In this document: positions 15,380 through 28,372 of the stretch, piece by piece
Numbering within the stretch: the stretch's first letter is position 1
Layout: each line of letters begins with the position of its first letter
Assembly: GCA_028534125.1 (NCBI GenBank)
Contig: CM052816.1
Span: forward strand, 7,070,001 to 7,134,000
From: Lama glama
Lineage: Eukaryota
Reading direction: 5' to 3'
DNA: 64,000 nt
Program-made: the position numbers and the translations under genes
The notes under the pieces: model-generated
Seen by the model: the letters and a program-made list of their open reading frames with translations, nothing else
Told to the model about the DNA's origin: nothing
Databases searched by the model: none

Positions 15380-28372
<12,993 letters not shown>

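Follow-up and report, generated by a model that had tools for sequence, protein, structure and literature searches.

Does the leucine at residue 283 of the stress-granule protein G3BP1, found in the 64,000-nucleotide stretch of llama DNA analysed here (the window), reflect a conflict between host and virus, or is it an ordinary substitution? The question arises because the residue directly precedes a glutamate after which the 3C protease of FMDV, the virus of foot-and-mouth disease, cuts the pig protein. Splicing of the 11 coding exons on the minus strand (28330 to 15380) gives an intact frame of 1398 nt and 465 amino acids, and all ten introns are of the GT-AG type. The encoded domains follow the order NTF2-like domain, acidic and proline-rich linker, RRM and RGG tail; proteins that match the window product carry PF02136 and PF00076, and identity to most named placental G3BP1 proteins is 96–98%. 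As judged from its sequence, the window gene is an ordinary G3BP1 orthologue. It contains introns and lies head-to-head with plus-strand exons near 60500 and 63100, which we take to be those of ATOX1, this G3BP1-ATOX1 arrangement being presumably the expected synteny. CpG-rich stretches are located at about 42000–43200 and 54500–55300, with a long TG repeat near 54000; the two stretches are probably the promoters of G3BP1 and ATOX1.

On the minus strand, positions 19134–19123 read CCT CGT CTG GAG directly 3′ of a TTTAG acceptor. Since exons 2–8 sum to 840 nt, exon 9 opens at P281, and its start, CCT CGT CTG GAG TCT, encodes P281-R282-L283-E284-S285. Both the count and the reading had been given in an earlier note on this DNA and were borne out by the splicing of the 11 exons; the enterovirus 3C site Q324/G325, which the note described as unchanged, is intact. 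Wherever PMC13274924 names an arginine in its mutant constructs (11 in all), the window has arginine too, so the numbering of the window protein is that of the pig protein, and E284 holds in the 465-residue frame. A frame or numbering error as the source of L283 is ruled out by the 465-residue frame, the GT-AG introns and the arginine register. A PDB search with exon 9 returned no matches. Coordinates of the features are collected in Table 1.

Table 1. Features of the G3BP1 gene in the window.
Feature	Position	Strand	Description
G3BP1 coding span	15380..28330	-	11 exons, 465 aa, frame intact
Exon 9	19023..19134	-	112 nt, codons 281-318, disordered linker IDR2; PxxP core P293-P296 and L-protease arginines R301/303/306
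Codons 281-282	19129..19134	-	Pro (P4) and Arg (P3, CGT)
Codon 283	19126..19128	-	CTG, Leu; P2 at the place where FMDV 3C cuts pig G3BP1; most mammals, dromedary and pig included, have Pro
Codon 284	19123..19125	-	Glu, retained; P1 at the place where FMDV 3C cuts pig G3BP1
Codon 285	19120..19122	-	Ser, P1′; Thr in pig
Exon 10	18662..18790	-	Enterovirus 3C site Q324/G325 unchanged

Cleavage of pig G3BP1 by FMDV 3C after E284, which the earlier note had mentioned, is documented by two groups. Ye et al. (2018; PMC5980976) mapped the cut to E284; the E284A substitution abolished it and strengthened antiviral activity, while Q280A and E288A did not prevent cleavage. The second paper (PMC13274924) confirms the site, assigns the L-protease determinants to R301/303/306 and R426/428, and reports that with the cleavage-resistant E284A pig protein the share of granule-positive infected cells rose from 56% to 81%. 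Since E284 is P1 and the numbering is shared, L283 is P2, as had been proposed. Pig is the only species in which the E284 cut is mapped in these papers, and the primer table of PMC5980976 gives CCA as the pig codon for P283 and Thr as residue 285 (PRPE/TK). At P1′, pig has Thr and the other artiodactyls seen have Ser; given this Thr285, the cut may be less general than has been assumed. A route to G3BP1 loss driven by 3A is also reported (PMC7108857, PMC9610432).

The window site carries Glu at P1, where Gln or Glu is expected of an FMDV 3C site, and Pro at P4 (P281), as at the VP1/2A junction. The basic P2 residue reported for P1-Gln sites is absent, the residue being Leu in the window and Pro in the cleaved pig site. 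PMC5797948 shows that P2 must be Lys or Arg at the VP1/2A junction, that the P2 residue can by itself determine whether 3C cuts a P1-Gln site, and that this selectivity goes with P1-Gln. Since the rule is stated for P1-Gln sites, it does not separate L283 from P283, and since the pig P1-Glu site is cut with Pro at P2, a basic P2 is unnecessary there. From the retention of P4-Pro and P1-Glu, and from cleavage of a pig site whose P2 is not basic, we infer that the L283 form stays cleavable, at a rate that could shift either way. Passages of PMC12758216 and PMC13067793 gave no data on P2 preference at P1-Glu sites, and a literature search found no cleavage data for camelid G3BP1.

Support for codon 283 was sought in sequencing runs with a query of 601 bases around the codon, from which 58 words were sampled. 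The search listed 24 runs, and 14 of these contain 95% or more of the words; when the possible source study is set aside, 12 runs from five studies, under four organism labels, do so. RNA runs (word shares 0.05–0.36) and the runs of organism G (0.48–0.59) were excluded as allele evidence. All 58 words are present in two runs of one other study, and the probability that no sampled word spans codon 283 is about 4%, if words are drawn at random. An assembly or consensus error, which the earlier note had allowed for, is thus extremely unlikely, even though L283 differs from the dromedary residue by a single base. A segregating allele, neutral or mildly deleterious, rather than a fixed species trait deserves somewhat more weight but is still rather unlikely. 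Nine runs under four organism labels all stand at 97% of words (about 56 of 58) and could share one difference from the window, possibly at codon 283; an intronic difference would account for this value equally well, and the two samples with the complete word set bear a different organism label. Among ruminant-type genomic fragments, L283 is found in one of seven (P0095, one ENA contig), which departs from its cluster mate P0091 at residue 283 only, and this Leu may be an allele or an error. As to mechanism, segregation is compatible with a tolerated change at a CpG.

The closest named protein to the window product is dromedary G3BP1 (KAB1281348.1), the only named camelid protein among 283 proteins fetched, which covered 40 of the 819 members of the main mammalian cluster and listed 15 of them, mostly an unrelated transporter. 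Of 426 residues, 424 match; P283 accounts for one of the two differences, and the other falls at a junction in a gene model that skips an exon. The window thus belongs to a camelid other than that dromedary record. If lost words are taken as substitutions, four of the organism labels in the run search lie within about 0.2% and a fifth at about 2%, which probably indicates a South American camelid, a Bactrian-type camel or a dromedary allele being less probable. Entries for SLC36A1, an unrelated transporter, also stand in the 819-member G3BP1 cluster (that of P0026), an artefact of how the collection was clustered. At S221, P222, E225, A237 and L461 the window agrees with dromedary and departs from the T/A/D/I/I of most placentals (exon 7, 20672–20873; exon 12); the S221-P222 pair creates a new Ser-Pro motif near the S231/S232 region, which we take to be a phosphorylation region.

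The earlier note had linked L283 to the low susceptibility of camelids to foot-and-mouth disease (FMD); this link did not survive the comparison. Since dromedary has P283, L283 cannot explain the clearest case of camelid FMD resistance. Leu is also found in armadillo and in Rousettus, neither of them a cloven-hoofed host of FMD, and in the one ruminant-type fragment, so that its distribution is not that of a residue present in resistant and absent from susceptible species. In the Americas FMD is a disease of recent centuries only, which makes prolonged exposure to FMDV unlikely if the window comes from a South American camelid. Passages of PMC4028749 and PMC7240906 did not give the date of its arrival in South America. 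Under the WOAH position cited in PMC12382891, susceptibility is accepted for Bactrian camels and not formally for dromedaries, and South American camelids, although open to infection, carry no epidemiological significance; dromedary resistance is also reported in PMC13343275. That L283 shields G3BP1 from FMDV 3C and so contributes to low camelid susceptibility could be argued from its place at P2 of a twice-confirmed site and from the possible size of the effect, as judged by the gain in granule-positive cells and antiviral activity with E284A. We nevertheless regard it as very improbable and as largely refuted already by P283 in dromedary, which is not counted among the susceptible camelids. 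Infection is possible in New World camelids, the L-protease arginines R301/303/306 and R426/428 are intact in the window, and the strong P2 rule belongs to P1-Gln sites, the pig site being cut with Pro.

How freely residue 283 changes was estimated on 31 placental sequences, one for each of 30 species plus the window, with isoforms, marsupials and low-identity copies omitted; a few of the retained entries (hippo, lemming, narwhal) are possibly gene copies or models of low quality. In this set, 34 window codons were masked, and changes were counted by parsimony on a standard tree entered from knowledge. Residue 283 is P in 27 sequences, L in three (window, armadillo and Rousettus) and Q in one (Rhinolophus). 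Proline is thus the usual residue, as the earlier note held; its motif PRPESK for other mammals fails in pig, where the sequence is PRPE/TK. The four changes inferred by parsimony place residue 283 jointly 9th–11th among 465 sites, and it is the most changed site within 247–334. The description of G3BP1 as otherwise highly conserved applies to the NTF2-like domain, with 0.09 changes per site, and not to the linker, with 0.6–0.8. Nine linker sites show at least four changes where a Poisson model expects one, an excess that points to a class of tolerant sites within the linker. In 59 non-therian homologues, residue 283 is P in 28, V in 16, A in 10, L in two, S in two and M in one, fish and frogs having V, A, L, S or M; no residue other than E or D occurs at 284 in any of the 59. 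P1-Glu is likewise kept in the L283 and Q283 orthologues of the window, armadillo, Rousettus and Rhinolophus. Loss of an SH3 motif through P283L was considered and rejected, since P283 is part of no PxxP pair. In bats (P0026, P0063, P0148 and P0239), Gln is found in Rhinolophus and in a degenerate Rousettus copy, and Leu in the Rousettus gene, which suggests two successive changes of codon 283 in Yinpterochiroptera, putatively from Pro through Gln to Leu.

A mutational route to Leu can be read from the codons. Only one proline codon, CCG, lies a single step from CTG. A CpG transition in CCG yields CTG, the codon of the window, or, through the other strand, CCA, the codon of pig; these are its two one-step products. 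From these two codons and the repeated P-to-L change in artiodactyls we infer that the ancestral codon was probably CCG. The P283 codon of artiodactyls is known from DNA in pig only (CCA): of two metagenome scans for relatives' DNA, one gave no matches to an exon 9 pattern and the other 489 pattern matches, none of them confirmed. Twenty-six degenerate copies, judged by low identity or by "like" labels, provided a second view. In 13 of the 26, R282 (CGT in the window) has become Cys or His, which clearly bears the mark of CpG mutation. Eight of the copies have a changed P283 (L, T, S and Q in two each), three a changed P281 and one a changed P287. With shared events counted once, the excess at 283 is weak (Fisher p 0.026; 0.053 when one bat copy, whose Gln is probably inherited, is removed). 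Both copies with Leu are artiodactyl, a baiji "like" copy and a divergent musk-deer copy; P-to-L is found in two of nine artiodactyl copies, not all of them independent, with no other change at 283 among them. Codon 293 (19096–19098, minus strand) is CCG in the window and in pig and Leu in sheep and red deer. Across the 31 placentals, P-to-L is found at one of 38 non-CCG prolines, and two of four CCG prolines are unchanged. Ruminant-type fragments have Leu293, with one Phe, and monotremes have Leu293 too; in the main FMD host group, this Leu removes P293-x-x-P296, the sole PxxP core in residues 226–322.

Taken together, the evidence makes it likely that L283 is a tolerated change in a disordered linker, probably arising through a CpG transition, which the earlier note had offered as its neutral alternative and which we prefer, the window CTG and the pig CCA both being CpG products of the putative CCG. 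On this reading, L283 is real and belongs to the camelid lineage, at a position of IDR2 that tolerates change. It most likely came about after the split from the dromedary line, by C-to-T transition at a methylated CpG from an ancestral CCG to CTG, and then drifted with little effect on stress-granule function. This reading is supported by the dromedary protein, which has P283 and is otherwise the same, by the recurrence of P-to-L in artiodactyl copies and in one of seven ruminant-type fragments, and by a residue that varies in non-therians and belongs to no PxxP pair. Against tolerance count the retention of P283 in 27 of 28 further sauropsid proteins, the conserved flanks and the rank of 283 as the most changed site of its region; against the CpG route count the weak excess in degenerate copies, the two unchanged CCG prolines and the possible Pro-Gln-Leu route in bats.

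The last of these, if real, is not explained by CpG decay and is the best support for selection. A protease of some virus other than modern FMDV (an older aphthovirus-like, or a picorna- or calici-like virus) might have driven the P2 change independently in camelids, bats and armadillo. Such an origin would fit four changes between conserved flanks, a possible double change in bats, the several viral proteases that are reported to cut G3BP1, the power of one P2 residue over 3C cleavage at a P1-Gln site (PMC5797948) and the granule gain of the cleavage-resistant pig mutant (PMC13274924). We consider it unlikely all the same: the recurrent change across lineages is also seen in degenerate copies, which should lack such pressure, eight other linker sites are as variable as 283 or more so, and P1-Glu, whose loss blocks the cut, is kept in every changed orthologue. 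Bolder and slightly more doubtful again is a recurrent adaptive toggle at P2, changed independently in camelids, armadillo and Old World bats (Pro-Gln-Leu) under pressure from picorna-like viruses; residue 283 would then tune the rate of G3BP1 cleavage and granule dissolution. Were it true, mammals would offer a natural series of alleles at a single viral protease site in a central stress-granule protein, and the question could be put whether picorna-like viruses and G3BP1 are locked in an arms race. With the tolerated change preferred, L283 reads as a substitution of the ordinary kind, and what is useful is a negative finding: it cannot explain dromedary FMD resistance. No published description of G3BP1 P283L was found in a literature search.

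Set beside known systems, the window site resembles the pig E284 site in protein length (465 aa), numbering, P4-Pro281, P3-Arg282 and P1-Glu284, and differs from it at P2 (Pro in pig, Leu in the window) and P1′ (Thr in pig, Ser in the window). The dromedary protein shares with the window S221, P222 and E225, absent from the other named artiodactyls in the set. The G3BP1 proteins of armadillo (XP_058148650.1) and Rousettus (XP_016019871.1) have the same PRLESK motif as the window, with Leu of independent origin in each and a bat route that may include Gln. A review describes small differences near the site that decide FMDV 3C cleavage, as with species-specific eIF4GI and with eIF4AI versus eIF4AII. 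The window is like these systems in having a small near-site difference; there, the difference in cleavage was measured, whereas G3BP1 codon 283 is known here from sequence, and its pattern among species does not track FMD susceptibility.
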